Of a stretch of DNA of 64,000 bases, positions 8,270 through 52,097 are shown in pieces. The position numbers and the translations under genes are program-made. The notes beneath the pieces are model-generated. The model was not told the origin of the DNA and did not search any database. It saw only the letters and a list, made by a program, of their open reading frames with translations. The first letter of the stretch is position 1, and each line of letters starts with the position of its first letter. Origin of the DNA: Acidimicrobiaceae bacterium (lineage in GTDB: Bacteria > Actinomycetota > Acidimicrobiia > Acidimicrobiales > Aldehydirespiratoraceae); the NCBI GenBank assembly GCA_028819005.1, contig JAPPMP010000032.1, forward strand, positions 11,236-75,235, read 5' to 3'.

Positions 8270-8645
8270 GGTGTTGGGGTTCTTTCTCATTGGGCTCGGG
8301 TTGGTTGCGGGGCTCGGGTTGGTTGTCCGGCGCCAGACCACCGTTGGCGACCAGCGCCTCGAGCCGGTTCTTGTGGTACTGGCTGTGGATGCTGTCGGCT
8401 GCGGACTGTGCGGCTGCGACGGCATCGGCCTGCACTGGGGTGGTGACACGACGCCACTGCTCGATGTACTTGTGAGTCTCGGTCAGTCCAGCGACGTGAG
8501 CGGCCCGATCAATGGCGTGTTGGAAGCGGGGGTGGAGCATGATCTTCTCGTTGTGGCCGTTGTCGGTGGTTGCGGTGATCTGGGCGGGAATGTCACGCCA
8601 GTAGATGGTCGTGAAACCGGGGTTCCGGCTGCGTCTTCTGCTCAT
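8262..8645 (-). CDS. small 'virulence factor'-domain protein of MttB/corrinoid clusters (function unknown)
   Basis: 127 aa with 'IYWRDIPAQI...LHPRFQHAIDRAAHVAG'. It has ATGA overlap with the upstream gene and an 8-nt overlap with the downstream gene. Its C-terminal tail has an 18-nt duplicated PEP(N/R)Q segment. Confidence 0.5.
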   Translation of the reverse strand: MSRRRSRNPGFTTIYWRDIPAQITATTDNGHNEKIMLHPRFQHAIDRAAHVAGLTETHKYIEQWRRVTTPVQADAVAAAQSAADSIHSQYHKNRLEALVANGGLAPDNQPEPRNQPEPNEKEPQHHD

Positions 8646-10071: not shown

Positions 10072-10231
10072 TTGGACGGCTCCAAGAGTTGTGGATTGGT
10101 CTGGGGCATCCACGGAACGATTGTCCCGCATCGTGGAACCGTACCGTATCATGAAACGCGGGTGATCCTGAACCGCTTCACGCAGATAAATCGCGAAACC
10201 AGCGAAGGGGATCGAGCGGTAGCCTGTTGCC

Positions 10232-21453: not shown

Positions 21454-21647
21454 CTCATCTCGGGTACTTGCTGGTCGGCTGGGGCGTCAGCCTCGGTTGC
21501 GGAGTGCTGTACGCGGCGCGCCTGGTGCTTCGCGGACGCGATTTGTCGGCCCGGGTTCCAGCGGAGCACCGCCGTTGGATGACCAGCGATGACGGCGCCG
21601 GTTCCGCCGCTGAGTCAGCCGCGCCCGACCAAGGGGCAGGTTCGTGA
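21450..21647 (+). CDS. ccmD: small membrane protein in the CcmD position
   Basis: 65 aa with a single TM ('LGYLLVGWGVSLGCGVLYAA'). GTGA overlaps on both sides. Confidence 0.45.
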   Translation: MTHLGYLLVGWGVSLGCGVLYAARLVLRGRDLSARVPAEHRRWMTSDDGAGSAAESAAPDQGAGS

Positions 21648-22189
21648 CCGGGGAACTCACACCTCGAGCGCCGCGGCCTCTGCGTTCTCGCAAAGCGCCG
21701 TGGGTTGCGCTGGTGATCGCCCTCGCGGTGGTCGTGGCTGTGGCGGCGTTGATCGTCAATCTCGTCGAAGGCTCGCTGTACTTCTACAACGCGGATGAAG
21801 CTGTCGAGGAGCGTTCAGACATCGGCGACAGGCGCTTCACGCTGCAGGGTTCCCCGATCGGCTGCTCGATAGTCGAGGGCTTCAGCGACGACGCGCCAGT
21901 AGTCGCGTTCAGCCTCTCCTTCGGCGGCTCCTCCGTCGACGTCGTGCATCATGGTGACCCTGCTGATCTGTTCCAGGCGGATGTGCCGGTGGTGCTCGAC
22001 GGCGTCTGGGTCGAGCAGCCACCGGTGGTCGAGGGTTTTTCGGGCATCGCAAACGACGGTTGGCACTTCTCATCGGATCGCATGCGCGTCAAGCACGACA
22101 ACGACTACATCAATGACGACGAGTATGACGAGCGGTTGGCTCTCAGTGACGCGGGAGCGGATTCAACCGAGGTGGTCTGCGAGGCGTGA
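21644..22189 (+). CDS. ccmE: heme chaperone CcmE
   Basis: N-terminal anchor followed by an OB-like body. The heme-binding HxxxY motif is present as 'KHDNDY'. Confidence 0.8.
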   Translation: MTGELTPRAPRPLRSRKAPWVALVIALAVVVAVAALIVNLVEGSLYFYNADEAVEERSDIGDRRFTLQGSPIGCSIVEGFSDDAPVVAFSLSFGGSSVDVVHHGDPADLFQADVPVVLDGVWVEQPPVVEGFSGIANDGWHFSSDRMRVKHDNDYINDDEYDERLALSDAGADSTEVVCEA

Positions 22190-24183
22190 GCAACGTCACC
22201 CTGGGTGCGCTTCTTGTTGCCCTGGGAGCGGCGAGCGCGTTGGCCGGTATCGGCGTAGTCGTCGGTGGCCTGCTCGGTCGCAGGTATCGCTGGTGGCGTG
22301 ACTGCACGATGCTGGCGGGCTTCATGATGGCCGCGGCGGGTGGCGCATTCCTGGTCATGGAGCGTGCGCTGATAACCCGCGACTTCACAGTCTCGTTTGT
22401 GGCGCAACACGGCTCGTCGCGCACCCCGGCAGTATTCAACGTGGCGACGTTGTGGTCTGCGCTGGAGGGCTCGATCCTGCTGTGGACGCTGGTGCTGTGC
22501 GGTTACGTCGTGGCGGTCGTCATCAAGTTCCGCGACCGCGGTGACGATCCGATGATGGCCTGGGTGATGCTCACGCTGTTCGTCGTGTGCGGGTTCTTCT
22601 TCCTGCTCATGGTCGGCCCGGCCAGGCCGTTCTCCTCGTTCGATCCGGCGCCTTCTGCGAACGGGCAGCCCTTCGATGGACCCGGCCCCAACCCGCTGCT
22701 GCAGAACCACATTCTGATGGCCTTTCATCCGCCGATCCTCTATCTCGGCTATGTGGGGTTCACGGTTCCCTTCGCTTTCGCGATTGGAGCATTGGCGACC
22801 GGCAGGGTGGGCGAGGGCTGGCTGCTCGCTACTCGACGCTGGACGGTTATGGCCTGGGGTCTGTTGACCCTGGGAGTGATACTCGGAGCCTGGTGGAGTT
22901 ATGAGACTCTCGGATGGGGCGGCTACTGGGGTTGGGATCCGGTGGAGAACGTTGCGCTGCTGCCGTGGCTCACCGGCACTGCTTTCGTTCATTCGGTGAT
23001 GGTGCAGGAGAGGAGGGGGATGCTGCGGGTGTGGAACTTGTCGCTGGTCATTGCGACTTTCTCGCTCACCATTCTGGGCACCTTCATCACCCGTTCCGGT
23101 GCGCTGGAATCGGTGCATGCGTTTGTGGAGTCGGCTATCGGGCCCTGGTTCCTCACGTTCTTCGGTCTGACCGTGTTGGTTTCGCTGGGCTTGATCGCCT
23201 GGCGTGGTGACGAGCTCCGCGCGCCGGGGCGAATCGACTCTCCGTTGTCGCGTGAGGGCGCGTTCCTGATGAACAACGTGGTTTTCGCGGCGTTCGCTTT
23301 CGTGGTGCTGCTCGGGACGATCTTCCCGCTGATCGTGGAAGCCCTCAACGGGCGCACTCTGACCGTGGGCAGTCCCTACTTCGAGCGGATGACGATGCCG
23401 ATCGGCTTCGTCCTTCTCTTTTTGATGGCGATCGCGCCGGCTCTGCCATGGCGCAAGGCTTCGGCTGGGCTGTTGAGCGATCGGCTCATCTGGCCGGCCT
23501 GGTTGGGCGTCGGGGCGATTCTGTTGAGTGTGATGGTCGGGGCTCGTGGTTGGGCACCGTTGCTGGCGTTCGGACTCGGGGGTTTCGCCGGCGGCGCGGC
23601 GCTGCGTCAACTGGCGTCGGCTATCCGTCGTCTGCGCTGGCGTGGTCTGATCGGCCGCACCAACGGAGGCATGATCGTGCATCTCGGAGTGGTCCTGATC
23701 GCCGTTGCGCTGGCTGCGAGCAACTCCTATGTCCGTCAGGAGACGTTCGAGATGTCTCCTGGCCAGACAGCAGAGTTGTCCGGTCACACGTTCACCTTCC
23801 TCGGCACTGAAGTGGTGGAGTACTCGAACAGGGTTGAGCGCAGAGCCGCTGTGCGGATAGACGGGGGGCCGGTACACGAACCGGCTATTGCCATATACGA
23901 CTTTGCGGGTCGGCTGATCGGGATCCCGTCGGTGCGCTCCACTTTGACCGACGACGTGGCTCTGTCGATAGCAGAGATGTCTGACGACGGTCAGACCGTC
24001 TTCTTGAGAGTCACCGTTCAACCGCTGGTCGTGTGGCTGTGGATCGGCGGGTTTGTGATGGCTGCGGGCACGCTGCTCGCAGTTGTGCCTCAGAACCGTC
24101 GATCGCCGATCTCGCCGGGTTCGGCTTCATCGACGCGCCGGCAAGTTCGGACGGCCCGAAAGAGCGGTAAGGAGCTCGTGTGA
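22186..24183 (+). CDS. ccmF: cytochrome c heme lyase subunit CcmF
   Basis: 665 aa, polytopic, with WWD motif 'WGGYWGWDPVEN'. Confidence 0.9.
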   Translation: MSNVTLGALLVALGAASALAGIGVVVGGLLGRRYRWWRDCTMLAGFMMAAAGGAFLVMERALITRDFTVSFVAQHGSSRTPAVFNVATLWSALEGSILLWTLVLCGYVVAVVIKFRDRGDDPMMAWVMLTLFVVCGFFFLLMVGPARPFSSFDPAPSANGQPFDGPGPNPLLQNHILMAFHPPILYLGYVGFTVPFAFAIGALATGRVGEGWLLATRRWTVMAWGLLTLGVILGAWWSYETLGWGGYWGWDPVENVALLPWLTGTAFVHSVMVQERRGMLRVWNLSLVIATFSLTILGTFITRSGALESVHAFVESAIGPWFLTFFGLTVLVSLGLIAWRGDELRAPGRIDSPLSREGAFLMNNVVFAAFAFVVLLGTIFPLIVEALNGRTLTVGSPYFERMTMPIGFVLLFLMAIAPALPWRKASAGLLSDRLIWPAWLGVGAILLSVMVGARGWAPLLAFGLGGFAGGAALRQLASAIRRLRWRGLIGRTNGGMIVHLGVVLIAVALAASNSYVRQETFEMSPGQTAELSGHTFTFLGTEVVEYSNRVERRAAVRIDGGPVHEPAIAIYDFAGRLIGIPSVRSTLTDDVALSIAEMSDDGQTVFLRVTVQPLVVWLWIGGFVMAAGTLLAVVPQNRRSPISPGSASSTRRQVRTARKSGKELV

Positions 24184-24734
24184 TGACCGCCGTGCCTCCT
24201 CGGAGGGCCGTGTGGATCGTGACCCCCGTTGCGGTGGTGATGCTGCTGCTGTTGCTGCTGTTCGCGACCCGCGATTCTGGGACCGGAAGCGGCAGTGCAG
24301 CGATCAACAAAGGCGGGTTGGCGCCGGCGATCATCGGTCCGACAATCGATGGCGGGGAGTTCGACTTGGACGACCAGCGGGGCCGTTTCGTGGTTGTCAA
24401 CTTCTTCTCCACGACATGCGTGCCTTGTATCCGCGAACATCCGGAACTGGTCAGTTTCCATGAGGCGCACGCGCCGACGGGTTTTGCCGAGGTCGTGTCG
24501 GTGGCCTTCGACGACAGCGCTGCGAATGTGGCTGCGTTCTTCGACTCCAACGGGGGGGACTGGCCGGTTCTCGCCGGCGACACGGGTTCGACAGCAGTGG
24601 CTTACGGAGTCCCGCTGGTGCCTGAGAGCGTCATCGTCGCCGACAACGGCGAGGTCATCGACAAGTTGATCGGCGGCGTCACCCGGTCTCAGATCGAGAA
24701 CGCGATCGCCGCCTATCAGGAGTCGCGAGCGTGA
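24180..24734 (+). CDS. ccmG: thiol:disulfide oxidoreductase CcmG/DsbE (TlpA family)
   Basis: N-terminal anchor and thioredoxin motif 'FFSTTCVPCIRE'. Confidence 0.8.
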   Translation: MMTAVPPRRAVWIVTPVAVVMLLLLLLFATRDSGTGSGSAAINKGGLAPAIIGPTIDGGEFDLDDQRGRFVVVNFFSTTCVPCIREHPELVSFHEAHAPTGFAEVVSVAFDDSAANVAAFFDSNGGDWPVLAGDTGSTAVAYGVPLVPESVIVADNGEVIDKLIGGVTRSQIENAIAAYQESRA

Positions 24735-26445: not shown

Positions 26446-28626
26446 ATGGACCGTTTGCGAAACCTCGATCTTGGCCGTGTTGCGATCCTGTTGTTGCTGG
26501 TGATCGGCACCGCGGCGCTGTTTACCCGAGACCAGTGGGACTGGTTTTTCGCCTCGGACGAGCCACAGACGGAAGACGTCACCGCTCCTCAGATCGAAGT
26601 CGCCGATGTCGATCTGGCAACGGAGCGCTTGTACAGGGTCAGTCCCGACAACGGCTCTGAGGTCAGCTATCGGGTTCAGGAGCGGCTTGCCGGCAGTCAG
26701 CGGGTGACGGTGGGCGCCACAACGGTTGTGGCGGGCGACATCAAGGTCAATGTCGTCGACCCGAGCCTCTCGCACGTTGGTGAGATTGTTGTCAACGTCG
26801 AGATGTTCGAATCGGATTCGACCCTGCGCGACAAGAGGATCCGCCACGACTTCCTGGAGTCGACCCACTGGCCGTTCGCCCGCTTCGCCCCTGCGATGAT
26901 CGAGGGTCTTGATTCCGTGTTCGCAGACGGCGCCAGTTATGAGGTTTCGATCACCGGCGACTTGACCGTGAAGGAGACCACCCTCGAAGAAACGTTCACA
27001 GGCACTGTCACAGTCGGCCCCGACCAGCTCATTGCGTCGATGTCTGCGACAGTGCTGAGCAGCAGCTACGACGTCGGCCCCATCAACATCGCCCGTCTGG
27101 CACACACCGACGACGAAGTCGAGTTGCTCTTTGAGCTCGTCGCGGATCGAGTGGACACAGGTTCGTCTTCCAGGTCGGACTTGGAACGCGAGCTCCCCGC
27201 CTTCGAGGTTGCGGGTGGTGCGTTCGCCGCCCACGTTCAACCGATCCTGGAAACCCGATGCGTGTCGTGCCACACCGCGGGCGGCCCGGGTTGGAGCACT
27301 CTGGCCTTCGACACCGCGGGCCAGGCCGCCGAGGTGGCTGAAGACATCGCGCTGGTGACGCAGATTCGTTTCATGCCTCCTTGGCTGCCATCGGACCTGA
27401 GTCCGGCGTTCGAACATGACTGGTCGCTGAGCGATGAGGAGATCAGCGTGATCAACGAGTGGGCGAGGGCCGGCGGCGGGCTCGACGTCGCGGTCGACAC
27501 TCCCTTGGTCGCTCGGGTGCAGGCTGTGCTGCCGATCGAGGAGGACCAGAAGATTCCGCCACGGGACGGGCCCTACACGGGCTATTCCGATGCCGACGGC
27601 AATCCGGTCAAAGCTGACGACTACCGCTGCCAGGTCCACGAAGTCAGCGACCCCGAGGGCGACGGCAACTGGGTCAAGGGGTTCGAGTTCCGACCGGATC
27701 AGACCTCGGTGGTCCACCACGCGATCGTCTACAGAGTTCCTGCCTCCGCGGCAGCTGAGGTCAAGGCCAAGATCGCCGCCGAGGACCGGATCGAAGCCGA
27801 TTCGGGGCTTTCGGATGAACCGGGTTGGACCTGTTTCGGGTTGTCGGGCCTCTCCTCGCAGGAGGTCTATTCGATTCAGGGTTGGGCGCCAGGACAATCG
27901 CCGACCATCTACCCCGATGGCTACGGCGTCTATCTCTACCCGGGCGACATGATCGTCAACCAGATCCACTATCACTACGACCACGACACGCCTGCCGACG
28001 GTTCGTGGATCATCCTCGACACCGCCGATCCAGCCGAGGTTGCCGCGGGATTGACCCATATCACCGGGTCCTCGTATCTGACTCCGGCCGAGGTGCCGTG
28101 TACGCCTGAGGAGTCCAAGGCCGCTCAACAACGCGCTCAGACCATCGACGGTTACGTGAACCTCTGTGTACGTGAGAACGTGCTCAAAGAGATCGGCGAG
28201 AAGTACGACCAATTCGCCACCTTCATTCCTGATGCCCTGCTGCAACGCTGTGGGGGAACAGTCGACGACTACGACGACCTCGACGGCTCGGTCGGCTACA
28301 GCTCGTGTGACATGAGAGCTCGGAACCCGGGAACGATCCACACGGTGCTCGGGCATATGCACGAGTTCGGCGCGGCCTACCGGATGACTCTCAACCCCGA
28401 TACTGCCGAAGAGCGAATCCTGCTCGACATCCCGGTCTGGGATTTCGAGTGGCAGCTCAACTACGCCCCGATCGAGGACATCCGCATAGACACCTCAGAC
28501 ATTGTGCGGTTCGAGTGCTGGTGGGACCGCACCCTCAAGTTCATGCCGGAGCCTCGCTACATCACTTGGAACGAGGGAACGGTCGACGAGATGTGTTTCT
28601 CGTCGATCTCAGTCCTGCCCGACTAG
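26446..28626 (+). CDS. membrane-anchored fusion: YceI-like domain + single CxxCH heme-c motif + PHM/DBH-like copper type II monooxygenase domains
   Basis: N-terminal TM segment. YceI-like segment ('YRVQERLAG...GDLTVKETT'). Heme-c motif 'CVSCH'. Copper-ligand-like motifs 'VVHHAIVY', 'QIHYHYDH', 'GHMHEFG' and 'DEMCF'. Confidence 0.7.
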   Translation: MDRLRNLDLGRVAILLLLVIGTAALFTRDQWDWFFASDEPQTEDVTAPQIEVADVDLATERLYRVSPDNGSEVSYRVQERLAGSQRVTVGATTVVAGDIKVNVVDPSLSHVGEIVVNVEMFESDSTLRDKRIRHDFLESTHWPFARFAPAMIEGLDSVFADGASYEVSITGDLTVKETTLEETFTGTVTVGPDQLIASMSATVLSSSYDVGPINIARLAHTDDEVELLFELVADRVDTGSSSRSDLERELPAFEVAGGAFAAHVQPILETRCVSCHTAGGPGWSTLAFDTAGQAAEVAEDIALVTQIRFMPPWLPSDLSPAFEHDWSLSDEEISVINEWARAGGGLDVAVDTPLVARVQAVLPIEEDQKIPPRDGPYTGYSDADGNPVKADDYRCQVHEVSDPEGDGNWVKGFEFRPDQTSVVHHAIVYRVPASAAAEVKAKIAAEDRIEADSGLSDEPGWTCFGLSGLSSQEVYSIQGWAPGQSPTIYPDGYGVYLYPGDMIVNQIHYHYDHDTPADGSWIILDTADPAEVAAGLTHITGSSYLTPAEVPCTPEESKAAQQRAQTIDGYVNLCVRENVLKEIGEKYDQFATFIPDALLQRCGGTVDDYDDLDGSVGYSSCDMRARNPGTIHTVLGHMHEFGAAYRMTLNPDTAEERILLDIPVWDFEWQLNYAPIEDIRIDTSDIVRFECWWDRTLKFMPEPRYITWNEGTVDEMCFSSISVLPD

Positions 28627-28831
28627 CCGAAATGAACAATTCTTTCTTGCCCGTTCAGATTTTCACTAGGAACCCACCCCAGATATCTGCAAGCCATAGC
28701 CTTCGAGTGCAGGCTCCAACACCACACCAACGTCCCAGGCACAACCGCTAACCAAGTCCGATTTTTTGGAAATCACACCTAGGGTTGTGTACCGGACTCG
28801 ACCAACGACTTCATATCAAGGAGGTGAATCG

Positions 28832-30442
28832 GTGCGGATAGGACAAGATGCAATGAATGCTGCCCTCGGAGATCTTCGGGGACTCCGATGGAGCACCAAA
28901 TTCGTCTCGCTGTACGAGTCGTTCCTCGTGGCAAAGTGGTTAGAACGTCACGAGCGGTACCCGGGCCCGCCGTCGGTTGAGGATGCTAACCAAGCTGTGG
29001 CGGAACTGTTCGTCTTCGATCCCAGCCATGCGAATGGACGGCTGAGCGCGTTTCGTTACGACTGGAAGCTCGTTGACGCGTCGGGACGCAAGACCGTTTG
29101 GAACAACACAACTCGCTCCCCGACGGTTGCAACCTCAATCTTTGTTGATGGTGACATCCGTTATGGCCTCCGGCCTGATGCGACGATAGTCATGCGGCAG
29201 CACCTCCAACACTTGGAGTTGCCGAGCGCTCAGGCCCTAGCCTGTCTTGTTCTTAGAGATCATGACTTTCCGCCGACGGCGCATTGGGACGACGCGCTGG
29301 ATCTCCTCCGAGACTCCCTTGGCCTCGACGAAGTGGATCTCTCCCGGATCACGGCACAACGCGAACTAAGCCCCCGCTTGTTACTGTCGGGTACCGAGTG
29401 GTCGATTGCGGGACTGCCCGAGAGTCTGGCTCCTCCTTCGCTTGTGGCGGTAGCAGCACTGTCAGCGACCGGCGAGTCTGAAGACGACATCATCGTCAAT
29501 TCTCGGACGGCGCGAATGCTCCGAACTGCGGTCATGAATTTCGCGTCGGTCTTGCTCGTCGGCCCACCCGGGACAGGCAAAGGGCGTTTGGTGCGATGGT
29601 TGGCCGAGGAGGTCCGTATCAACCCCGTCAGCTTCGGTTTTGCCGAAGGAACGGACCCGAACCCGATGTGGAGGACTCCCGACGAGAGTTGGTCGGCGTT
29701 TGAGATGATTGGAGGCCTTGCGCCGAGGGACGGCGAACTTGCATGGTCTAACGGACTCCTCCTGAACAGCTTGGCCGAGCAACGCTGGCTCGTCCTCGAC
29801 GAAACAAATCGAGCAGATATGGACAAGATCATGGGACCGTTGCTCACGTGGCTTGCCGAGCAGGAGGTGGAGATTGGTCGAACCGCAGCTCACGGCGGAC
29901 ATCCGATCGTGCTCGGTTGGAGTCGCGAATCTGCAAACGCTGCGATCGACCCCTCTGGTGTAGGGGAACCAACCACCTTCGTTGCAGGGACGAACTGGCG
30001 TTTACTCGGCACATATAACCCACAGGACGCGCAGCGTGTGTTCCGCTTCGGTCAGGCTCTGTCGCGTCGGTTTACTACGGTACCGGTCCCGGCGTTGAGC
30101 CCGGGAGAGTTTGAGTCACTGCTCGTCTCGCGATTCCCGGGGCTGGGCGATGATGCCAAGGCGTCGATAATCGGCTTGTACTCGGCGCACCACGTTAGCG
30201 CTGAGACAGTCCTAGGACCGGCCGTGTTCCTGAGGATGGGATCATACCTGAGGAATGCCGATCCAACGCAGAGCACCGAGGAACTCATCGCAGAGGCTTA
30301 CGTGTTGTCACTCGGGAAGTACATAAGTTCTTTCGATGATTCTGACTTTGATGACCTTGGTCGCCGCGTCCTAGACGAAGAAGCGGTTCTTAGTAAGGCA
30401 CAATGGGATTGGGTGGAGGAGCAGAGGGAGATCCTCGGTTGA
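28832..30442 (+). CDS. McrB-family AAA+ (AAA_5) NTPase with unrecognised ~250-aa N-terminal domain
   Basis: GTG 28832 lies 7 nt after a perfect AAGGAGG. Walker A 'GPPGTGKG', Walker B 'WLVLDETNRADMDK', and McrB-like 'LLGTYNPQDA' and 'ALSRRF' motifs are present. Confidence 0.8.
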   Translation: MRIGQDAMNAALGDLRGLRWSTKFVSLYESFLVAKWLERHERYPGPPSVEDANQAVAELFVFDPSHANGRLSAFRYDWKLVDASGRKTVWNNTTRSPTVATSIFVDGDIRYGLRPDATIVMRQHLQHLELPSAQALACLVLRDHDFPPTAHWDDALDLLRDSLGLDEVDLSRITAQRELSPRLLLSGTEWSIAGLPESLAPPSLVAVAALSATGESEDDIIVNSRTARMLRTAVMNFASVLLVGPPGTGKGRLVRWLAEEVRINPVSFGFAEGTDPNPMWRTPDESWSAFEMIGGLAPRDGELAWSNGLLLNSLAEQRWLVLDETNRADMDKIMGPLLTWLAEQEVEIGRTAAHGGHPIVLGWSRESANAAIDPSGVGEPTTFVAGTNWRLLGTYNPQDAQRVFRFGQALSRRFTTVPVPALSPGEFESLLVSRFPGLGDDAKASIIGLYSAHHVSAETVLGPAVFLRMGSYLRNADPTQSTEELIAEAYVLSLGKYISSFDDSDFDDLGRRVLDEEAVLSKAQWDWVEEQREILG

Positions 30443-31653
30443 TTGATCCAGTTCTTCCGCGCTCCGGGCTTGATGAGTTGACCCGGGGGTGGATTGGCGA
30501 CGGAGACCTGCTCCGGGCCGTTGCGGCAAGCCGAACTGACGAGCACAGTTGGAGTGAGCGCGACGTTCGTCACCGCGGCCAGCGAAACGCGCTCGCTCAG
30601 TTTGCCGATGATCTTGTGAGATTGCCCAAGAGCGAACGCGAATGGGCCGATGCGTTGCCCGCGGAGTCGCGCGTGGCCAAGACAGTCTCGATGGTGCCAT
30701 CGGGAGGGATTCGATGGTCCGAAACAGCTCGTCGCCACGGCTGGCCTCCTTCGGCTTTCGCCCTACGGCACCGGAGTCGCGTAACCGACGAGACAGCGCT
30801 AGCGGCGCTTGCGTGGCTCGCAATGAGGTTGGACGAATTCAGGCGCGCCTGCCGGAGCAGTCCCACCCTGCTAAGACGGATCGAACCGCCGATCTCAGCG
30901 ATGTTTCGAGCCGTGGCGCATCTGGAAGAACCGAACCCGGTGCAACCCGACCGAACCGATTTACGCTCGTTGCGTTCCTCTGGGCAACCCTGGTCAGTGG
31001 TTTCGCGGATCGCTGCACTTGTGACGCGTGTTGACGATGATCCGGCATTTATTGCATTCGAACTCCTATATCCGGAGCCTGACTTGGCGTCCCGTCTCTT
31101 TCACCTGAACGTCTTCGGCGAGGTTCTACGAGCTCTCCGCAGCGCTGGATTCCGGTGTATGTGGCGATCTCCGATCGGAGGGGTACGCACTGGTCCGAGG
31201 CTCCAGTGCGTCGATACTCACGGCCTAATCTTCGACCTCTGGTTTGAGGCTGCTGGGTCGCGGAAGCACTACGCATTAGACGACGGTGCCTATGTACACG
31301 CGACCCGCAGTATCAGTGGCGCCGGTGGCCCGATCGGTGCTGATATCGCACTGGTATGCGAAGCCCGCAAAGCTGTCCTCCTGCTTGAGTGCAAATGGTC
31401 ATCCGACCCGTCGTATGTCGCGCGTGACGGGTTTCATCAAGCGGCGAGCTACGCTCTGGACGCACGGGACGGCTTCGCCGAGAGAGTCTGGTCATTCGTC
31501 GTCGGTCCCGCCGAGATCATCCCTGAGCCGAACGTGGCAACACGGTTGGAGGGCCGCTCCATCATCCTAGGCTCAGTCTCTTGCGATCATGTGCCCGCCC
31601 TAGTCACCGCCTTCGGTTCACTCAGCCCACTGGCAATGTCCATGTGGCGTTAG
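30439..31653 (+). CDS. McrC-like partner with C-terminal PD-(D/E)xK nuclease motif
   Basis: TTG 30439 overlaps the upstream TGA (TTGA); ATG 30403 is an alternative start. The motif 'GADIALV...(13 aa)...LLLECKW' gives D...ExK. Confidence 0.6.
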   Translation: MIDPVLPRSGLDELTRGWIGDGDLLRAVAASRTDEHSWSERDVRHRGQRNALAQFADDLVRLPKSEREWADALPAESRVAKTVSMVPSGGIRWSETARRHGWPPSAFALRHRSRVTDETALAALAWLAMRLDEFRRACRSSPTLLRRIEPPISAMFRAVAHLEEPNPVQPDRTDLRSLRSSGQPWSVVSRIAALVTRVDDDPAFIAFELLYPEPDLASRLFHLNVFGEVLRALRSAGFRCMWRSPIGGVRTGPRLQCVDTHGLIFDLWFEAAGSRKHYALDDGAYVHATRSISGAGGPIGADIALVCEARKAVLLLECKWSSDPSYVARDGFHQAASYALDARDGFAERVWSFVVGPAEIIPEPNVATRLEGRSIILGSVSCDHVPALVTAFGSLSPLAMSMWR

Positions 31654-32974
31654 AGAGCTTCTCCTTGGCCGCCGACACGTATGTCTGCGAAACGTCGAAA
31701 CCGATGAACCGGCATCTGTGATGTAGCGCGGCGACGCCGCTCGTGCCCGCTCCAACGAATGGATCAAGTACAAGGTCGCCAGCCTCTGTCGTCAGTGCGA
31801 TACACCGACCCGGCAGTGCCATCGGGAATTGCGCGCCGTGCCCTTCGCCGCCGCTCGACGTGTTCAGCATCCAGACATCAGAGAGCTTCTCGGACTCCCA
31901 CCCGTTGTTGCGTCCGCCGTATCTGGGTTCAGCCGTAATGTACGGAGCACGGGAGAATTTTGGCCTTCGCTGCCGCGTGAGGTGGATGACGTATTCGAGA
32001 TTCCGGCTCACTCGTGAATTCTGCGGCTCCGGGAGGGTCGCGCGCTTAGCCCATGTGATCATCGTCTTTACCCATAGACCTGTTCGACTGGCTCGCTCGG
32101 CGATCCGTGCAGGAATCATGCACTGCTCGCCATCCTTGAGGTAGGCGTGACCCGCCGAGTATCGCCTAGCGGGATGATCCGCCCAAGCTCGATGGTCCAG
32201 TCCTTGCATCGCGCGGAGCGCCTCGGCAGCGTTTCCCCGGATCTGAGTTCGAGTGTTGAACGAGTCCATGACATTCCACCAGATGGACCCGTCGGACGTC
32301 ATCTTTGGTGCCAACGCGACCAAGATCTCGACGGTGTGTCTGATGAATGCCTCAGGTGTCTGCTCGTGGCCGTATGCACAGATGTCACCGTCAGCCCAAG
32401 GAACTTGGCTGGAGTCTTCGTAGATTCGCAGACCCCAATAGGGTGTGGATGTGACGGCGCAGTTCACTGATTGATCAGGCACTTGGCATAGTAGGTCAAG
32501 TACGTGGCCTACACGAAGATCGTAGTTGTCTGGATTAGGGATCTCCGATACTTCTTGGTCGGACTCGGCACGCTGAGTCAGATGGTCGAGTATGCGGCTT
32601 CGAGGTACATACGTTTCGCAGAATGCGTCTTGGTCAAGAAGTCTGATGATGTCGTCGGCTAGGAAGTTGTCGCGCTTTCCTGTAACTCGGAAAGCGAAGC
32701 CAGACGAGAAGCCCACAACCGGTAAAACAAGGTGCGCTCCGAAGGACGACTGGCTTGAAGCGTACGCGGCGCGGTCGAGTGCCCGCACTGGTGTGCGAGG
32801 CTTAATATCTGGAAGCTGTTCTGAAACGGCGGCATCCGGCGATGGACTGCGGTCATCGCGTCCGTAGCGGTCGGGCGCCTGTACTGTTGTGTTGGTGTGT
32901 GTGCTCGGGCTTGACGGCAGTGCAGCGCCGGGTCCGGGCAGCAGACCGTCGTCGAGCGAGTCGTCTGGCATCAC
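31622..32974 (-). CDS. beta-class N4/N6 DNA methyltransferase with ~150-aa N-terminal extension
   Basis: Motif IV-like 'VTSTPYW' sits upstream of the AdoMet motif I 'DLVLDPFVGAGTSGVAA', preceded by 'GAQFPMALPGRCI'. The 3' end overlaps the convergent nuclease gene by 32 nt. Confidence 0.85.
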   Translation of the reverse strand: MMPDDSLDDGLLPGPGAALPSSPSTHTNTTVQAPDRYGRDDRSPSPDAAVSEQLPDIKPRTPVRALDRAAYASSQSSFGAHLVLPVVGFSSGFAFRVTGKRDNFLADDIIRLLDQDAFCETYVPRSRILDHLTQRAESDQEVSEIPNPDNYDLRVGHVLDLLCQVPDQSVNCAVTSTPYWGLRIYEDSSQVPWADGDICAYGHEQTPEAFIRHTVEILVALAPKMTSDGSIWWNVMDSFNTRTQIRGNAAEALRAMQGLDHRAWADHPARRYSAGHAYLKDGEQCMIPARIAERASRTGLWVKTMITWAKRATLPEPQNSRVSRNLEYVIHLTRQRRPKFSRAPYITAEPRYGGRNNGWESEKLSDVWMLNTSSGGEGHGAQFPMALPGRCIALTTEAGDLVLDPFVGAGTSGVAALHHRCRFIGFDVSQTYVSAAKEKLSNATWTLPVG

Positions 32975-45894: not shown

Positions 45895-47577
45895 ATGATT
45901 GAACGGGTGATCACCGGACAGTTGACGAAGTTGTTTCGCCAATACCCGTTTGTGACGGTGACCGGACCTCGGCAAGCGGGCAAAACGACGCTCTGCCGTT
46001 CAACATTTGGAGATGCGGCATACGCCAGCCTCGAAGCCCCTGATGAACGCGCCTTCGCAGAAAGCGACCCTCGAGGGTTTTTGCGCCATCTGGGCACTCC
46101 CGCGATCATCGACGAAATACAGCACGTGCCTGCGCTGTTGTCCTACTTGCAGGTCATTGCCGATGAGGACGGCCGCAACAGTCTCTATGTGCTGACAGGA
46201 AGCGAGAACTTGAAGCTGTCCGAGGCAGTCGGCCAGTCGCTCGCCGGACGTACTGCGCTGCTGCGTCTTCTGCCTTTCTCGCTCGACGAATCCAGACGCG
46301 CAGGCGCGAGCGAAGCATTTGCCGACATCGTTTTCAACGGCTTCTACCCGCGCATCGCGGATCAGCGACTGGAGCCTCGCCAAGCGCTCGGCGATTATTT
46401 TGAGACGTACGTCGAACGGGATGTGCGCCGCATGGGAGGGGTCAGTGATCTGTCTGTATTCAGGCGGTTCGTGGCGCTGTGCGCCGGACGGGTGGGACAG
46501 ATGTTGAACCTGACGGCGCTCAGCGGTGATGCAGGGGTGTCGCACACGACGATTCGCCAGTGGGTCACTCTGCTGGAGCGCAGCTACATTGCGTTCTTGC
46601 TGCCGCCCTTTGCAGCGAACATTCGCAAACGGCTGGTCAAGTCCCCGAAGCTCTACTTCTACGATGTGGGACTTGCCAGCTACCTGTTGGGCATCGAGGG
46701 TCCGGGTCAAGTGGCGACGCATCCATTGCGCGGTTCGCTTTTTGAGAACGTCGTCATCGCCGAGGCGGCAAAGCACTGTTACAACCGGGGCCGCGAACCC
46801 CGGCTTTCGTTCTTCCGCGACTCGCGTGGCCTCGAATGCGACCTGTTCTACGAGACTGAGCGAGGGGTCAACGGCATCGAGGCTAAATCGGGCGTGACGA
46901 TCGCATCAGACTGGGTGCGTTCGCTCGACCGAATCGCCGAACTCGTCCCGGACTTGGTTGGCAAAACGGTTGTCTATGGTGGAGCCAAGGCTGAGGCGCG
47001 AGGCGGATGCGACATAATGCCGCTCGGGCAGTTCGACGAGGCACTGGGCAACTTCGATGCGGATGTAGCGGTTCGGGTTGCCTGTGGTGGCACCCCCGTC
47101 GCCGGCGTGGACGTCCTTGCGCTGTTCCCCAACAATGTGTGGCAGCGCGCGACGAGCGACGTCGCAGGCGTCGCGCGGCTCAAGCTGTACACGACGGACC
47201 TTTCCATGACTGTCTACGCGGCCGGAGAGGGACTGAGCGCCAAGATCGTCAGCGATTGGGTTCCCGCGCGGGGTTCGCTGGAGGTGGAACTCGATGTTCT
47301 CGTCGACGGCGGCTCGGTGATCTTTGCGGACCAAACAGGTTACGTGCCCGGTATCGAGGGCCGCCTCAATCCGATTCTTGACGTTGCACAGCGAACGTAC
47401 CTGTACACCACGAATGTTGCAGTCAACGGGGGCCTGGCGCAGCCCGTCGATTTCTCGGTCGGTGAAGATGTGCTCAACCTCGTCGATGCCCACGGAAACG
47501 AGCGCGACCTTCGGGTCGTAGCCATGAGCGGCCAATCGGCCTTGCTCGAGTACGGCCTGCCCTCCAAGTTGGCCTGA
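45895..47577 (+). CDS. AAA+ ATPase with DUF4143 domain and an extra ~170-aa C-terminal extension
   Basis: Walker A 'GPRQAGKTT'. The DUF4143-type body runs to about aa 385, followed by a beta-rich tail ('VRVACGGTPVAGVDVLALF...'). An AT-rich leader precedes the gene (45852-45894). Confidence 0.8.
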   Translation: MIERVITGQLTKLFRQYPFVTVTGPRQAGKTTLCRSTFGDAAYASLEAPDERAFAESDPRGFLRHLGTPAIIDEIQHVPALLSYLQVIADEDGRNSLYVLTGSENLKLSEAVGQSLAGRTALLRLLPFSLDESRRAGASEAFADIVFNGFYPRIADQRLEPRQALGDYFETYVERDVRRMGGVSDLSVFRRFVALCAGRVGQMLNLTALSGDAGVSHTTIRQWVTLLERSYIAFLLPPFAANIRKRLVKSPKLYFYDVGLASYLLGIEGPGQVATHPLRGSLFENVVIAEAAKHCYNRGREPRLSFFRDSRGLECDLFYETERGVNGIEAKSGVTIASDWVRSLDRIAELVPDLVGKTVVYGGAKAEARGGCDIMPLGQFDEALGNFDADVAVRVACGGTPVAGVDVLALFPNNVWQRATSDVAGVARLKLYTTDLSMTVYAAGEGLSAKIVSDWVPARGSLEVELDVLVDGGSVIFADQTGYVPGIEGRLNPILDVAQRTYLYTTNVAVNGGLAQPVDFSVGEDVLNLVDAHGNERDLRVVAMSGQSALLEYGLPSKLA

Positions 47578-47638: not shown

Positions 47639-48001
47639 ATGACTCGTAGAAAAAATCCTCAGTCCAATCGGCGCGTGGGCATGATCGGCCTTGTCCTGAT
47701 CTGCCTGGTTGTGTTTGCTGCAGGTTGCGCTTCCAACAATGACCCGGACAATTGGGAGGAGGCGATAGCAGACGGCACGCTGGAGGAGAACTTCATGCGC
47801 TCCTGTCAAGAGGCGAACGAGGGCGGCGGCCTGACCGAATCCGAGGCCGTGTCCTACTGCGAATGCGCTTTCGACGGATTGGCGCAGCGTTACGCCGATG
47901 ATTTCGACGACTTCAAAGACGCAGAGAAACGTCTGCGCAACGACCCCCAGGACATCGACCCCGCGGTGCGCGCGCTTCTTGAGAGGTGCGTTCCGACGTA
48001 G
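47639..48001 (+). CDS. small lipoprotein
   Basis: Lipobox 'LVVFAAGC' after a basic N-terminus, with four further Cys. Confidence 0.55.
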   Translation: MTRRKNPQSNRRVGMIGLVLICLVVFAAGCASNNDPDNWEEAIADGTLEENFMRSCQEANEGGGLTESEAVSYCECAFDGLAQRYADDFDDFKDAEKRLRNDPQDIDPAVRALLERCVPT

Positions 48002-48033: not shown

Positions 48034-48648
48034 TCAGGGGCGGGGGCCGAATTCGGGGCGTTCGGTGCGGGTGCGCTTGAGTTCCCAGAATCCGTCGATG
48101 TTCATCATCGTGACCAGGGAGTCCCACATGTCCAGGGAATCCTCAGTTGATGGGACTCGAGTGATGACGGGACCGAAGTAAGCCTGCTTTTCGCCGTGTC
48201 GGTTGTCGAAGGCGATGATCGGAGTGCCGACGTCGTCGCCGCAGAGTTCCAGCCCTGCGTCATGGCGTTGCACGATCTCGGCGTCGAAATCCTCGGAGTT
48301 GTAGGCCGCGGCGTGTGAAGCGCCGAGTCCGACGCTCTCAAGTGCTTCGGCCAGGTCGAAGCCGAATTCCTGATCGTGGTGGATCCGTCTGCCGTATTCC
48401 CAGTACAGGTCGAAGACCGCGTCCTCGCCCTCAGCGGCGCGCACTGATTCCATCACCCGCAACAGGCGGTAGGTGCGGTTGGTGGGCTCGTAGAAGGGAG
48501 AGTCTTCATCGGGCTGGTTCTTCAACAGGAGACTGATCGGTTGCCAAGTGATGTTGAGGTCGCGGGCCGGTTTCACTTCGTCGACGACCCAACGGGCCGT
48601 CACCCAGCACCACGGTCAAATTGGGTCCACCCAGAACTCGATATCCAT
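48034..48648 (-). CDS. DsbA-family oxidoreductase related to Rv2466c/mycoredoxin-2, with in-frame TGA (48616-48618) at the first Cys of the CPWC motif (selenocysteine candidate or nonsense pseudogene)
   Basis: Read from ATG 48648, the translation is MDIEFWVDPI-TGA-PWCWVTARWVVDEV..., continuing into ORF 48034..48603. The C-terminus 'DDVGTPIIAF...FGPVITRVP...FWELKRTRTERPEF' matches the Rv2466c family. A hairpin lies 14 nt after the TGA. Confidence 0.6.
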
Positions 48649-48652: not shown

Positions 48653-49825
48653 TCACCCCGCAGGTTCGGCCGAAACGGTCACCTTAGCGGCGGGTTGGGC
48701 CCAGTCGGGCCACCGGTCGCGGCTCTTGCGGGCCAGTTTGTGCATGAGCGCGATCGCCCCGGGGTCGTCGTCTCCGGGCCTGGTCTCGATCACGCCGTCG
48801 GCTGCCATTGCGCTGATGACGGCACGTCCGAGCTCGGTGCGAACGATCGTGAGGGTCCAGTCGGTGAGCTCGCCGATGCCCCCGGTTGAGATGTCGGCGT
48901 GTTCGGCGGCGAAGTCGGGGCACAGGTGGCAGCCCTCGCGGGTCCAGGCGTGGCACTCCTTGAGGTTGATCTCGTGGTAGCCGCCGTCCTTGGTCCAGAT
49001 CTGGAAGACGCCCTTGATGTTCATCTTGGAGATGTTCTCCTTGGGGAGGCCGTATTTGACCTCGAACAGTTCGTCGAAGAGGGAGTCGTCGAATGATTTG
49101 GAGCAGAGCAGGCCGATGTTGAGCTTGATCGGCTTGGAGACCTTGCCGACCTTGCGATGCCACATCACCGGCGCAACCGATGTCTGGCAGCTCATGCCCA
49201 CGAGGGCGAGGCGCTCCAAGCCCTTCTCTCTGGCTTCGTTGAAGGCCATGGTGTTGGCTGAGTAGGTGTAGCGGCTACCCGCGCCCCTCAGCACCTCGTC
49301 TCGGTTCGTGGCGACCATGGGGAACGCTTTCCAGCCGGGTTCTCCGTTGGGAAGGTTCTCCACGCCGCTGGTCAGCGCCCCGTCGATGACGTCGTTCTCG
49401 ATGCACCAGATGAGGATTGCCGAGACCAAGCCCCCGTCTTGGCCGGTGTCGTACACGAAGTCGTCTGTGGCGCGGGTGAGGAGAATGTCGGAGTAGACGC
49501 CCGACACCTCCTCGGGATCGCGTTCGCGACCGAAGAGGTGCATGTCGGCTTCCGGTTCCCACATGCGGAAGCGGGGACATGCCCGGGTGCATGAGGTGCA
49601 GCCCTTCTGCCCGTGGATGCAGTCGTCGAGCCCCAGCTCTTCTTCGAGGTGGAACGGCGTGTATGCGCCGGGCTCGTGTTCGTAGCCGATCACGTCGTGG
49701 GGGCACGAGATCACGCATCCGGCGCAGCCTGTGCAGAGTCCGCTGGTGATCACCTCGTCGAACAGCTCTTTCCACTGGTATGTCCAGCGCGGTTTCTTCG
49801 CCGGGGGTGCTTGGGCGGCGGCCAT
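48653..49825 (-). CDS. FrhB-family protein (coenzyme F420 hydrogenase/dehydrogenase beta-subunit family) with N-terminal 4Fe-4S motifs
   Basis: 'CTGCAGCVISCP' and 'CTSCTRACP' ferredoxin motifs followed by an FrhB-like body. Confidence 0.7.
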   Translation of the reverse strand: MAAAQAPPAKKPRWTYQWKELFDEVITSGLCTGCAGCVISCPHDVIGYEHEPGAYTPFHLEEELGLDDCIHGQKGCTSCTRACPRFRMWEPEADMHLFGRERDPEEVSGVYSDILLTRATDDFVYDTGQDGGLVSAILIWCIENDVIDGALTSGVENLPNGEPGWKAFPMVATNRDEVLRGAGSRYTYSANTMAFNEAREKGLERLALVGMSCQTSVAPVMWHRKVGKVSKPIKLNIGLLCSKSFDDSLFDELFEVKYGLPKENISKMNIKGVFQIWTKDGGYHEINLKECHAWTREGCHLCPDFAAEHADISTGGIGELTDWTLTIVRTELGRAVISAMAADGVIETRPGDDDPGAIALMHKLARKSRDRWPDWAQPAAKVTVSAEPAG

Positions 49826-49912
49826 TGCTTCAAGTTAGTCGCTCAGCGAGCAACGGACGAACGGAACGCGCCCCGGTTGGGGCTGAGGCGGACAGCTCAG
49901 CGGTTTCGCAAG

Positions 49913-49984
49913 CGCCCTCGGCAGGACTCGAACCTGCGCACACGGCTCCGGAGGCCGATGCTCTATCCTCTGAGCTACGAGGGC
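49913..49984 (-). tRNA. tRNA-Arg (anticodon CCG)
   Basis: The reverse complement reads GCCCTCGTAGCTCAGAGGATAGAGCATCGGCCTCCGGAGCCGTGTGCGCAGGTTCGAGTCCTGCCGAGGGCG. The acceptor, D, anticodon (loop CUCCGGA) and T arms (GGTTCGAGTCC) fold as a cloverleaf. Confidence 0.9.
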
Positions 49985-50103
49985 TCACCCTTGCGGGGTC
50001 GGCCAATGCTATCGTCCCGGCTTGCCCAAGGGTCTGTCATACCCTGCTGCAATAATCGGCTGACGCATCGCGCTACCGTGTTTGCGGCTGGCTGCGGATC
50101 GAC

Positions 50104-50141
50104 CAGCAAGGAACAACCCGGGCAGCAAGGAACAACCCGGG
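50104..50141. repeat. perfect 19-bp tandem duplication (CAGCAAGGAACAACCCGGG x2)
   Basis: Copies lie at 50104-50122 and 50123-50141, directly upstream of the GTG of the truncated desulfurase gene. Confidence 0.95.
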
Positions 50142-50148
50142 AGACCAA

Positions 50149-50460
50149 GTGACTGAGGTGTACTTCGACTACAACGCTTCTGGCCCGCTGGACCCGCGTG
50201 CGGCCGATGTCATGGTGCCTTGTTTGCGAAGCGGTGTCGGCAACGCGTCGTCATCACACCATTTCGGGCTCCGTCAAGCCGCTTTGGTGGAGAAGGCCCG
50301 CGGCCAAGTGGCGGAATTGATCGATGCGCCGGCGTCTGGGGTTGTGTTCTGCTCGGGGGCGGCTGAGGCCAACAATCTGGCCCTTTGGGGGTTGGCTATG
50401 GGGGCGCCGGCGGAACGAAATCGCCTAGTGGTTTCGGCGGTGGAGCATGCATCGGTCCTA
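50149..50460 (+). pseudogene. N-terminal fragment (~104 codons) of a class V aminotransferase / cysteine desulfurase (NifS/IscS-like)
   Basis: 'VYFDYNASGPLDPRA...GNASSSHHFG...VVFCSGAAEANNLAL...VVSAVEHASVL' is desulfurase-like. The similarity stops at about 50460, exactly where the convergent ATPase ORF ends. The rest of ORF 50149..50586 is antisense read-through. Confidence 0.65.
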
Positions 50461-51720
50461 GGGCGACAGAGTGGTGATGGGGACTACAGCCACCCCGTCC
50501 GGTCGTTCGTATCCGTAACCGGTGGCTGTGATCACCACAAGTTTTTCTGGAGCTCCGACCTTGCCGACATCAACCCGATCACGTAGGCGCAATAGTGATT
50601 GGGCCGCCTTGTCGATCGCCTCGGCGCCTCCCAGCTTGATTTCAATCGCCAACTAGGACCCGTCTGCTCGTTTCTCGACTATCGCGTCCACTTCCAAACC
50701 TCCTTTGTCTCGATAGTGATGAACTGCACAACGGTGCATAGTCGCGTATACGGACAAGTCGCGAACCACAAGGTTCTCGAACAACAAACCGAAGTAGTTG
50801 GTGTCCGACATCAGTCTTGAAGAACTCGTTTCCAGCGCGGCAGTTGCCAATGAAGGATCAACGAAGTAACGCTTGGGTGCCTGTCTCATGGGCACATGCG
50901 ACATGAGCGTCGGCTGCCACGCCGGGATGTTCTCAACGATGAACAATCGTTCAAGGGCTCGCAGGTAGGCCTTCACAGTCTCACGATTGAGTTGCGCATC
51001 CTTTGCGAGGGTGAGATGGCCGGCTTCACTTGCCACATTTCGAGCCAATGAACGCAACAGACGCGACACCCCGATCGGGTCGCGTTGGACGCTGTCAACT
51101 AGGGCCACATCAGTTCTCGCAATCTCATCAAGATAAGAAATCAGATAGTCTTGGGCGTCCTCCACTGAAGCATCGAGCAGGCTAGGCCAGCCACCAATCA
51201 CGGCAGAGTCCACGAGTTCTCTGAAATCTGTCTGTGGCTTGCCGGCTGTGACCGCCTCACCTTTGAAGAGTGCCTCCAGCGACACTTCATTTGTCGAGCG
51301 GCTCGACTCGCTGAACGTCAAGGGTTTCATCTGCACGCGGCGTACACGACCGGCGCCTGAGTGTCGTGTGATCTCATCTGGGGGCACCGCCGACCCAGTG
51401 AGTAGGAACAAGCCCTTTGTCGACTGCGAGTCGCACACGCGGCGAACCGCGTTCCATGTCCCGGGCACCATGTGCCATTCGTCAAGCAGCCGAGGTGGTT
51501 CTCCCTGCAGGATGCTCTCGGGATTGAGGGCGAAGGTCAGTTGCTGCTCATCGCTTCCATCGAGCATCACCTCGCTGGCCGCGAACTGGCGGGCTGACCA
51601 GGTTTTTCCGCAAGCTCTCGGTCCTTCCACTACTACAGCACCCATGGTTTGGAGGCCCCTGGCTATGTCAGCTTCCGCGATCCTTGGTAGATAACCCGGC
51701 GTCGGCAACACTATGCTCAT
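50458..51720 (-). pseudogene. AAA+ ATPase with DUF4143 domain, interrupted by an in-frame TAG (50653-50655)
   Basis: ORFs 50653..51720 (355 aa, Walker A 'GPRACGKTW') and 50458..50652 (64 aa, 'AIEIKLGG...') are in the same frame, separated only by TAG. Together they make about 420 aa, the usual family length. Confidence 0.75.
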
Positions 51721-51752
51721 GTTTGTTTCCCCTGGCAGAGACCTTCAATCAA

Positions 51753-51830
51753 CAGTTTGGCCCTTGTTCAATAGGCAGTTTGGCTTGATTACAGTATACA
51801 ATTTGGAGCTTCAGCAACCGACAGGTTGGC
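51753..51830. promoter_or_regulatory. four phased 9-mers CA(G/A)(T/G)TTGG(C/A) at exact 23-bp spacing (iteron/operator-like array)
   Basis: CAGTTTGGC at 51753, CAGTTTGGC at 51776, CAATTTGGA at 51799 and CAGGTTGGC at 51822. The array begins 33 nt upstream of the ATPase start (51720) in an AT-richer segment. Confidence 0.4.
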
Positions 51831-51983
51831 TCACCTACGCCCGTCCTGCTCGATCGCGCGACTTGGAGAGAAGATCCCAGGGTGAACATCCAGAACAACA
51901 AGGGAAGGGAAGGGCTAGAGAATACCAGGTACGTCAAGTGCTCAAAGCCATCGAACGGCTTGAACGCGAGCGAGGAGAACCGC

Positions 51984-52052
51984 ATGAGTGGCCGTTTCAC
52001 CTACCGATTGGCTTGGTCTGCAAGCGACGACGAGTTTCGGTTGGGGAGGTAG
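51984..52052 (+). pseudogene. 22-codon remnant resembling the N-terminus of a HicB-family antitoxin
   Basis: The fragment reads MSGRFTYRLAWSASDDEFRLGR-stop. From memory, '(R/K)FTYRVxWSxEDxEF' is the usual N-terminal start of actinobacterial HicB-like antitoxins. This was not searched against a database. Confidence 0.3.
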
Positions 52053-52097
52053 GATCGGGCGCTCCCTGTCACGTTCGATTTCGTTGAGGTACGGCCC

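Follow-up and report, generated by a model that had tools for sequence, protein, structure and literature searches.

An in-frame UGA as a probable selenocysteine codon for the nucleophile of a mycoredoxin-2 (Rv2466c)-type reductase in Acidimicrobiales

Does an in-frame stop codon in the active site of a redox enzyme mark a gene that has been inactivated, or a codon that is read as selenocysteine (Sec)? The question is raised by a gene on the minus strand of a 64,000-nucleotide (nt) stretch of DNA, referred to here as the window, from an uncultured Acidimicrobiaceae bacterium (GenBank assembly GCA_028819005.1, contig JAPPMP010000032.1, positions 11,236 to 75,235). The gene resembles those of DsbA-fold thiol-disulfide reductases of the Rv2466c, or mycoredoxin-2 (Mrx-2), type, and a TGA occupies the place of the first active-site cysteine (Cys) codon. 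Its start ATG lies at 48648..48646, 4 nt (CAGC) past the stop TGA (48655..48653) of an open reading frame (ORF) for an FrhB-family protein, and translation yields MDIEFWVDPI, the TGA at 48618..48616, and then PWCWVTARWVVDEV and the remainder of the protein. A preliminary description of the locus had reported the start codon, the in-frame TGA and the 4-nt gap, all of which were recovered, and had left a choice between a selenoprotein and a pseudogene. As judged from sequence comparisons, the TGA most probably encodes Sec as the attacking residue of a reductase of this type, making this a true selenoprotein gene (probability roughly 0.93).

Conventional annotation gives a different picture of the locus. 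Mechanical ORF calling restarts at GTG 48603 to produce a 189-residue protein, which begins 3′ of the U-P-W-C motif and, as had been anticipated, is without an active site. Public protein databases hold homologues of 98% to ~68% identity that are called at exactly 189 residues (93% coverage) and named “hypothetical protein” or “DsbA”, and interspersed among them are forms of 204–207 residues with CPWC or CPFC. The selenoprotein is present in >100 Acidimicrobiales species and is routinely mis-annotated as a truncated, 189-residue protein.

When Cys is set at the stop, the protein matches PF22234 (Rv2466c-like) with E = 1e-40 and 140.3 bits against a cut-off of 27, over profile positions 1–180 of 180. 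Its match to PF01323 (DSBA) is weaker, and none of the NCBIfam models matched the protein. Residues 4–201 align with the Mycobacterium tuberculosis Rv2466c structures 4ZIL, 4NXI and 5XUR at E ~1e-39 (4ZIL, E = 7e-40). In this alignment, DPI-U-PWCWVTARW stands opposite DPL-C-PWCWITSRW of Rv2466c, and U faces Cys19. Since Cys19 is the nucleophile of Rv2466c and Cys22 its resolving residue (PMC11841060, PMC8280269), the earlier placement of the UGA at the first, nucleophilic Cys of C-P-W-C holds. The active-site motif is thus U-P-W-C, with U in the nucleophilic position, and the corresponding motif of Cys orthologues is CPWC or CPFC, in keeping with the C-P-W/F-C definition of the DsbA-Mrx1 cluster (PMC8280269).

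Rv2466c (Mrx-2) is a reductase that depends on mycothiol; its activities include the reduction of mixed disulfides and the activation of nitro prodrugs, and NCgl2478 of Corynebacterium glutamicum works likewise (PMC11841060, PMC8280269). The window protein shares full-length homology with Rv2466c and with NCgl2339 and NCgl2478 of C. glutamicum, which are members of the DsbA-Mrx1 cluster (PF22234). It also shares the sequence context D-P-x-[C/U]-P-W-C-W-x-T-x-R-W, a C-terminal ELKRTRTE motif, a cytoplasmic location without a signal peptide, and a retained resolving Cys that corresponds to Cys22. Unlike Rv2466c, its predicted nucleophile is Sec and not Cys, and its host is an uncultured member of the Acidimicrobiales and not of the Mycobacteriales.

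If the TGA is a sense codon, it should be shared by related genes. Among GTDB representative genomes, one for each species, a first scan recovered 78 loci, all from metagenome-assembled genomes (MAGs) of Acidimicrobiales/Acidimicrobiia, closed chromosomes included. TGA occupied codon 11 in all 78, at protein identities of 56–94%. A further 80 loci came from a scan that started from aligned full-length homologues of the Cys type, and Cys-type proteins led to four more. Overall, 136 of 161 loci (123 distinct genes) carry TGA and 25 carry TGC or TGT, so that both forms asked about in the preliminary description exist among the orthologues. For instance, the Cys orthologues P0026 and P0031 (loci L079 and L080) have TGT at codon 11 and share the neighborhood of the window gene, with an FrhB-like gene upstream and genes for ArgRS, UDG and diacylglycerol kinase (DAGK) nearby. 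When 118 Sec proteins and 25 Cys proteins are placed on a neighbor-joining tree, at least four switches between Sec and Cys are required. One TGA-form gene (L028), with 72% identity and an FrhB-like neighbor upstream at 87%, lies on a 266-kb contig titled “uncultured Gammaproteobacteria bacterium” (CAXMSE010000039.1); the locus is typical of Acidimicrobiales, and the MAG is probably mis-binned or mislabelled.

The sequence on either side of the TGA behaves as a single coding region. No other in-frame stop occurs within the first 200 codons of any of the 123 distinct TGA-form genes. In codons 2–10, upstream of the UGA, summed entropy is 2.66, 0.32 and 9.09 bits at codon positions 1, 2 and 3, respectively, and departures from the consensus are synonymous in 301 cases versus non-synonymous in 92. 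Between the UGA and the GTG lie four codons (P-W-C-W), and these show synonymous change only (CCN and TGY, codons 12 and 14). Because the flanking codons vary mainly or only synonymously, both sides of the UGA are translated in one frame, which excludes a gene in decay as well as a product that begins at GTG 48603.

A sense UGA would also be expected to have a decoding signal. The hairpin noted in the preliminary description is present exactly as drawn: it begins 14 nt past the UGA and consists of GACGGCCC (48601..48594), the loop GUU (48593..48591) and GGGUCGUC (48590..48583), giving 8 bp with one G-U pair and placing the loop G 22 nt past the UGA. The 59 nt that start with the UGA fold at −28.7 kcal/mol versus −21.3 ± 2.8 for shuffled sequences (z = −2.67), and two of 200 shuffles were as stable. 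That the hairpin is more than a chance structure follows from comparative data, not from the fold of a single sequence. In an ungapped alignment (A1) of the window gene and 77 orthologues (76 distinct sequences), the eight stem pairs form in 99.7% of cells. The pair 48598:48586 joins two free third positions (Thr17 ACN and Val21 GTN) and occurs as G:C in 66 sequences and as A:U, C:G and U:A in three each, with a single mismatch. The covariation score was reached by none of 500 shuffles, and sliding the 3′ arm by 1–3 columns lowered pairing to 14–60%. RNAalifold, run without an input structure, returned the same helix as the main conserved element. The extended lower stem of the single-sequence minimum-energy fold was not conserved in the RNAalifold alignment and was excluded from the element.

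The hairpin is kept together with the TGA. All eight stem pairs are retained in 105 distinct Sec-form sequences and seven of eight in another 13, while Cys forms retain from two to eight. Codon choice in the region (codons 16–22) is nearly fixed among the 123 Sec genes (GTG 123/123, ACG 112, GCC 118, CGT 109, GTC 113, GTC 119), whereas Cys genes use mixed codons for the same amino acids, with CGC, for example, preferred over CGT. Synonymous entropy across these codons is accordingly 0–0.58 bit in Sec genes versus 0.70–1.76 bit in the 25 Cys genes, and the codons that flank the hairpin are equally variable in the two groups. Since synonymous sites are frozen only in TGA forms, the hairpin is selected for only where the UGA is present, and a constraint of this kind is what a selenocysteine insertion sequence (SECIS) element would predict. 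The question posed earlier, whether hairpin and TGA vary together, can thus be answered in the affirmative: the structure is kept in TGA forms, with all four Watson-Crick types at one pair, and relaxed in Cys forms.

A bacterial SECIS has been described as a stem-loop directly 3′ of the UGA whose small apical loop contains a G (PMC1088965), and the hairpin fits this description. Like bacterial SECIS elements of the fdhF type and of the published consensus model (PMC1088965), it is constrained at synonymous sites. Unlike fdhF-type elements, it is very short (8 bp, with a 3-nt GUU loop), is without a bulged U, and has no curated covariance model against which it could be scored.

The meaning of a UGA depends on the genetic code of the host and on its Sec machinery. 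Genome-wide reassignment of UGA was considered and rejected, as TGA ends 33 of the 43 Pfam-supported genes of the window, including the selenoprotein gene itself and its upstream neighbor. There are 49 sites in the window at which an in-frame TGA is flanked by a coding-like GC content at third codon positions (GC3), and only the one at 48616 combines a redox motif with a convincing gene context.

A generic tRNA-Sec signature scan of reference genomes found the gene in JBLIOE010000019, which belongs to the same MAG as one TGA-form gene (L019), and in four other Acidimicrobiia. All five were verified by ARAGORN and by Rfam RF01852, at 64–70 bits against a gathering score of 47. A 27-nt 3′ segment common to four of the five served as a clade probe and was found on at least 119 contigs, nearly all from Acidimicrobiia or other Actinomycetota. 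Seven assemblies were found to hold both a TGA-form gene, its TGA codon confirmed, and a verified tRNA-Sec (RF01852, 64–68 bits versus 47), in two cases on the same contig or complete chromosome (Table 1). An ARAGORN tRNA-SeC call in another locus, L027 (7796..7875), was discarded as a false positive, being 80 nt long, located inside a 266-residue ORF and unconfirmed by Rfam; this case indicates that ARAGORN SeC calls need a second method.

In several loci of Acidimicrobiia, selA, selB and selD adjoin the same type of tRNA-Sec. For example, NCBIfam equivalog cut-offs were exceeded in L310, from an Acidimicrobiaceae MAG, by TIGR00474 (388.5 versus 267.9), TIGR00475 (294.1 versus 242.25) and TIGR00476 (317.1 versus 125). 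The SelD of this locus (5986–6996) is of the Cys type, and an unusual N-terminal loop, TTCGGCAAKWGG, replaces the common GAG(C/U)GCK. SelA is widespread in the order: a profile search returned thousands of homologues, many of them named Acidimicrobiales and including the cultured Actinospongicola halichondriae. In the sister order, selA, selB, selC and selD have been reported from all Actinomarinales (2026 preprint, 10.64898/2026.04.03.716425).

How do other explanations of the in-frame TGA fare against this evidence? A single TGC/TGT to TGA mutation could have inactivated a Cys-type Rv2466c-like gene in this genome, and such a nonsense pseudogene would agree both with Cys-form orthologues that are one mutational step away and with the gene callers and public annotation that take the TGA as a stop and report 189-residue products. 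The same TGA, however, recurs in 123 distinct genes of different species, down to 56% identity, and none of these genes has acquired the further stop that a frameshift would almost certainly have made. Purifying selection on both flanks and hairpin synonymous sites frozen only in the company of the TGA are not expected in a decaying gene, and an artefact of sequencing or assembly is hard to credit when the TGA is found both in independent MAGs and in complete chromosomes from long reads. A pseudogene is therefore rejected, and these observations, together with the syntenic Cys orthologues, decide the choice left by the preliminary description in favor of a selenoprotein. The automated annotation would also be correct if the locus gave rise to two separate products, one a leader peptide of 10 residues, terminated at the UGA, and the other a 189-residue protein from GTG 48603, with the hairpin serving in translational coupling or regulation. 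GTG 48603 is indeed invariant in all TGA forms, but the hairpin stem starts with this very codon, which accounts for the invariance, and Cys forms have GTC, GTG or GTA at this position. Moreover, the P-W-C-W codons between the UGA and the GTG are conserved as protein, which indicates that they are translated, and a start at residue 16 would forfeit strand β1 and the whole redox motif on which relatives depend (PMC8280269). This arrangement is highly improbable.

The UGA might otherwise be read through without selenium, either by near-cognate tRNA(Cys) or tRNA(Trp) or through local suppression, to give a protein with Cys or Trp at this position. The hairpin would then stimulate read-through and not bind SelB, an effect of which hairpins 3′ of stop codons are capable. 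It is nevertheless very unlikely here, given the tRNA-Sec of seven TGA-form genomes and the occurrence of selA/B/D in the order, and given a UGA that terminates most window genes in the ordinary way. A UGA at the nucleophilic Cys of a redox motif that has Cys orthologues is also the standard signature of Sec, and the hairpin has the geometry of a bacterial SECIS, directly 3′ of the UGA and with a small, G-containing apical loop (PMC1088965).

Several points weigh against a selenoprotein. Loci were sampled by searches that started from peptide patterns of this protein and of Cys forms, which makes the ratio of Sec to Cys forms a biased estimate. The hairpin is short, its loop spans just 3 nt, and conserved amino acids also constrain most of its bases, so that a single pair is able to co-vary, as it does. 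Rfam has no bacterial SECIS model and hence offers no independent family match. None of selA, selB, selD or selC lies within the 64-kb window, in which the tRNA genes are those for tRNA-Arg(CCG) and tRNA-Pro(UGG). Among the matches listed, the closest relatives (≥86% identity) are not represented in the seven assemblies that combine both features, and none of the 120 SelA matches listed, out of 8000, was placed on the known complete chromosomes of the closest relatives (OZ220692.1, OZ242187.1, OZ240617.1, OZ244898.1 and others, 90–92% identity). Approximate E. coli SelA, SelB and SelD probes gave no tblastn matches in the window and loci L001–L162 (1.19 Mb), as expected for a tiny fraction of each genome.

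Table 1. Features of the selenoprotein locus in the window, and assemblies of relatives in which a TGA-form gene and a verified tRNA-Sec occur together.
Feature	Location	Strand	Remarks
Probable selenoprotein gene, Rv2466c/Mrx-2-like DsbA-fold thiol-disulfide reductase	48034..48648	minus	204 codons, ATG 48648 to stop TGA 48036..48034; active site U-P-W-C
In-frame UGA, codon 11, predicted to be read as selenocysteine	48616..48618	minus	position of the nucleophilic Cys19 of Rv2466c
Ten codons 5′ of the UGA (MDIEFWVDPI), strand β1 of the thioredoxin fold	48619..48648	minus	translated in frame with the remainder
SECIS-like hairpin within the coding sequence, putative SelB binding site	48583..48601	minus	8-bp stem, loop GUU
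FrhB/FdhB-family iron-sulfur protein gene, upstream	48653..49825	minus	390 residues; PF04432, PF04422, 4Fe-4S domains
TGA-form gene L019 and tRNA-Sec L180	JBLIOE01
TGA-form gene L053 and tRNA-Sec L317	JAWKIN01
TGA-form gene L063 and tRNA-Sec L330	JBCCIC010000011.1		same contig
TGA-form gene L067 and tRNA-Sec L343	JAWKIM01
TGA-form gene L101 and tRNA-Sec L357	CBDBEL01
TGA-form gene L087 and tRNA-Sec L387	OY763490.2		same complete chromosome
TGA-form gene L149 and tRNA-Sec L389	CAVOQQ01

The proposed selenoprotein has partial precedents. A “DsbA-like” UxxC selenoprotein family (COG2761/PF01323) was described from the Sargasso Sea in 2005 (PMC1088965) and is listed as “DsbA-like protein form 1” in a 2026 review (PMC13188914). 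The earlier remark that DsbA-like selenoproteins have been reported is thus true, but the proteins in question belong to another DsbA subfamily (PF01323 and not PF22234, with a similarity confined to 51 residues). The Sargasso family and the window protein have in common a thioredoxin fold of the DsbA superfamily, Sec in place of the first motif Cys, a hairpin directly 3′ of the UGA and widespread Cys homologues, and six of the ~11 Sargasso sequences read U-P-W-C, as does the window protein. Unlike the latter, the three Sargasso sequences tested match PF01323 only, not PF22234. The one compared pairwise with the window protein matched it over the first 51 residues only (39% identity, E = 4e-07), and the C-terminal ELKRTRTE motif is absent from the Sargasso sequences examined, which were published in a supplement (PMC1088965). 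The Sargasso proteins are FrnE-type DsbA proteins, a subfamily different from that of the window protein. The literature searched contained no paper pairing Rv2466c with selenocysteine, and of the three papers that pair names beginning with Acidimicrobi with selenoprotein, none describes this gene. What is new, then, is the Sec form of a different and biochemically well-studied subfamily, along with its wide distribution and its systematic mis-annotation.

The mechanism envisaged for the gene has a translational and a catalytic part. During translation, the hairpin 14 nt past the UGA would act as a bacterial SECIS element and recruit SelB-GTP with Sec-tRNA(Sec) to the ribosome, so that the UGA at 48618..48616 would be read as Sec and not as a stop, and synthesis would run on to the ordinary UGA at 48036..48034. 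By homology to Rv2466c and NCgl2478, the selenolate of Sec11 would then attack a substrate disulfide or mixed disulfide. Candidate substrates are proteins in S-thiolated form and, possibly, nitro compounds or other electrophiles. Cys14 would resolve the resulting selenenylsulfide, and a low-molecular-weight thiol or a reductase pathway would re-reduce the enzyme. In this scheme, we infer the insertion of Sec and the binding of SelB, as well as the nature of the substrates and of the reductant in the cell; the recoding mechanism itself is wholly conventional.

A further component might be supplied by the FrhB-family gene, which is probably co-transcribed with the selenoprotein gene, since 4 nt separate the two genes in the window and, in the closest relatives, 7–11 nt separate the aligned end of FrhB from the start codon. 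It lies directly upstream and on the same strand at 68 of 131 Sec-form loci and at three of 20 Cys-form loci. With adjacency limited to about half of the Sec-form loci and to so few Cys-form loci, the FrhB-like protein was rejected as an obligate partner, and a role as redox partner is speculative. The protein is also much more conserved than its neighbor, with 84–97% identity among relatives versus values as low as 64% for the selenoprotein at the same loci, and its scores fall far short of the curated cut-off for every named FrhB/FpoF equivalog. It is conceivable, though unlikely, that the Sec-form protein and this iron-sulfur flavoprotein make up a dedicated two-component reductase, in which the selenenylsulfide would take its electrons directly from F420H2 or another donor of the FrhB type. 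If so, the pair would be a selenium-dependent system for repair or detoxification that needs no thiol cofactor and is specific to marine and sponge-associated Acidimicrobiales.

Other features surround the gene. On the far side of the FrhB-family gene is tRNA-Arg(CCG) (49912..49984, minus strand), and between this tRNA and the ArgRS gene lies a DUF4143/AAA_14 ATPase gene (50653..51720, minus strand). In the same interval, a cysteine desulfurase frame (50149..50586, plus strand) stops after ~104 of ~380 residues and retains the N-terminus only of an Aminotran_5/DndA/IscS protein. The interval from tRNA-Arg to ArgRS (49985–52097) has a GC content of 0.577, and the ArgRS and FrhB genes are only ~670 nt apart in the Cys-form relative L079; the interval looks like a remnant insertion beside a tRNA gene. 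A second DUF4143/AAA_14 ATPase gene, encoding 560 residues with a long C-terminal extension, is found on the other side of the selenoprotein gene (45895–47577). Another occurs downstream of the Cys-form orthologue in L079, and such ATPase genes recur in this neighborhood. Convergent to the selenoprotein gene is a 120-residue ORF (47639–48001) without a Pfam match, the product of which has a lipoprotein-like N-terminus (a hydrophobic stretch, then ...AAGC). The ORF is likewise found downstream of the gene in 28 relatives, conserved at 29–83% identity.

Farther away, the region at 28000–32974 has a GC content of 0.586–0.603 over 28–32 kb, versus ~0.63 elsewhere. This low-GC stretch and the gene adjacent to it encode an AAA_5 (McrB/dynein-type) ATPase, an ORF without a Pfam match and an N6/N4 DNA methylase, and may be an acquired restriction or defence island. 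Positions 19341–24734 hold a complete system I cytochrome c maturation cluster (CcmA, B, C, E and F) followed by a Redoxin/AhpC-TSA thiol-disulfide protein (CcmG-like). Finally, an MttB-family methyltransferase (PF06253, E = 4e-221), a RACo corrinoid activase, a pterin-binding methyltransferase, a DUF1638 protein and a B12-binding corrinoid protein are encoded at 3732–10233, a quaternary-amine or methylamine demethylation module of a kind common in marine bacteria.

The case for a selenoprotein has consequences for annotation as well as for biology. More than 100 species representatives are affected by gene calls that lack the active site, which a family-specific rule would fix, and a covariance model for SECIS elements of actinobacteria, lacking at present in Rfam, could start from this compact and strongly constrained example. 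Use of Sec is widespread in the Acidimicrobiales, including sponge-associated lineages (Aldehydirespiratoraceae, Poriferisodalis), which extends what the preprint reported for the Actinomarinales. The mycoredoxin-2/Rv2466c subfamily joins the thioredoxin-fold enzymes that have natural Sec forms, and it does so with a well-studied Cys enzyme as its reference, as Rv2466c is an antitubercular prodrug activator with solved structures. Natural pairs of Sec and Cys orthologues, with ~70% identity and at least four independent switches between the two, provide a clean system for measuring what is gained by Sec in this fold.

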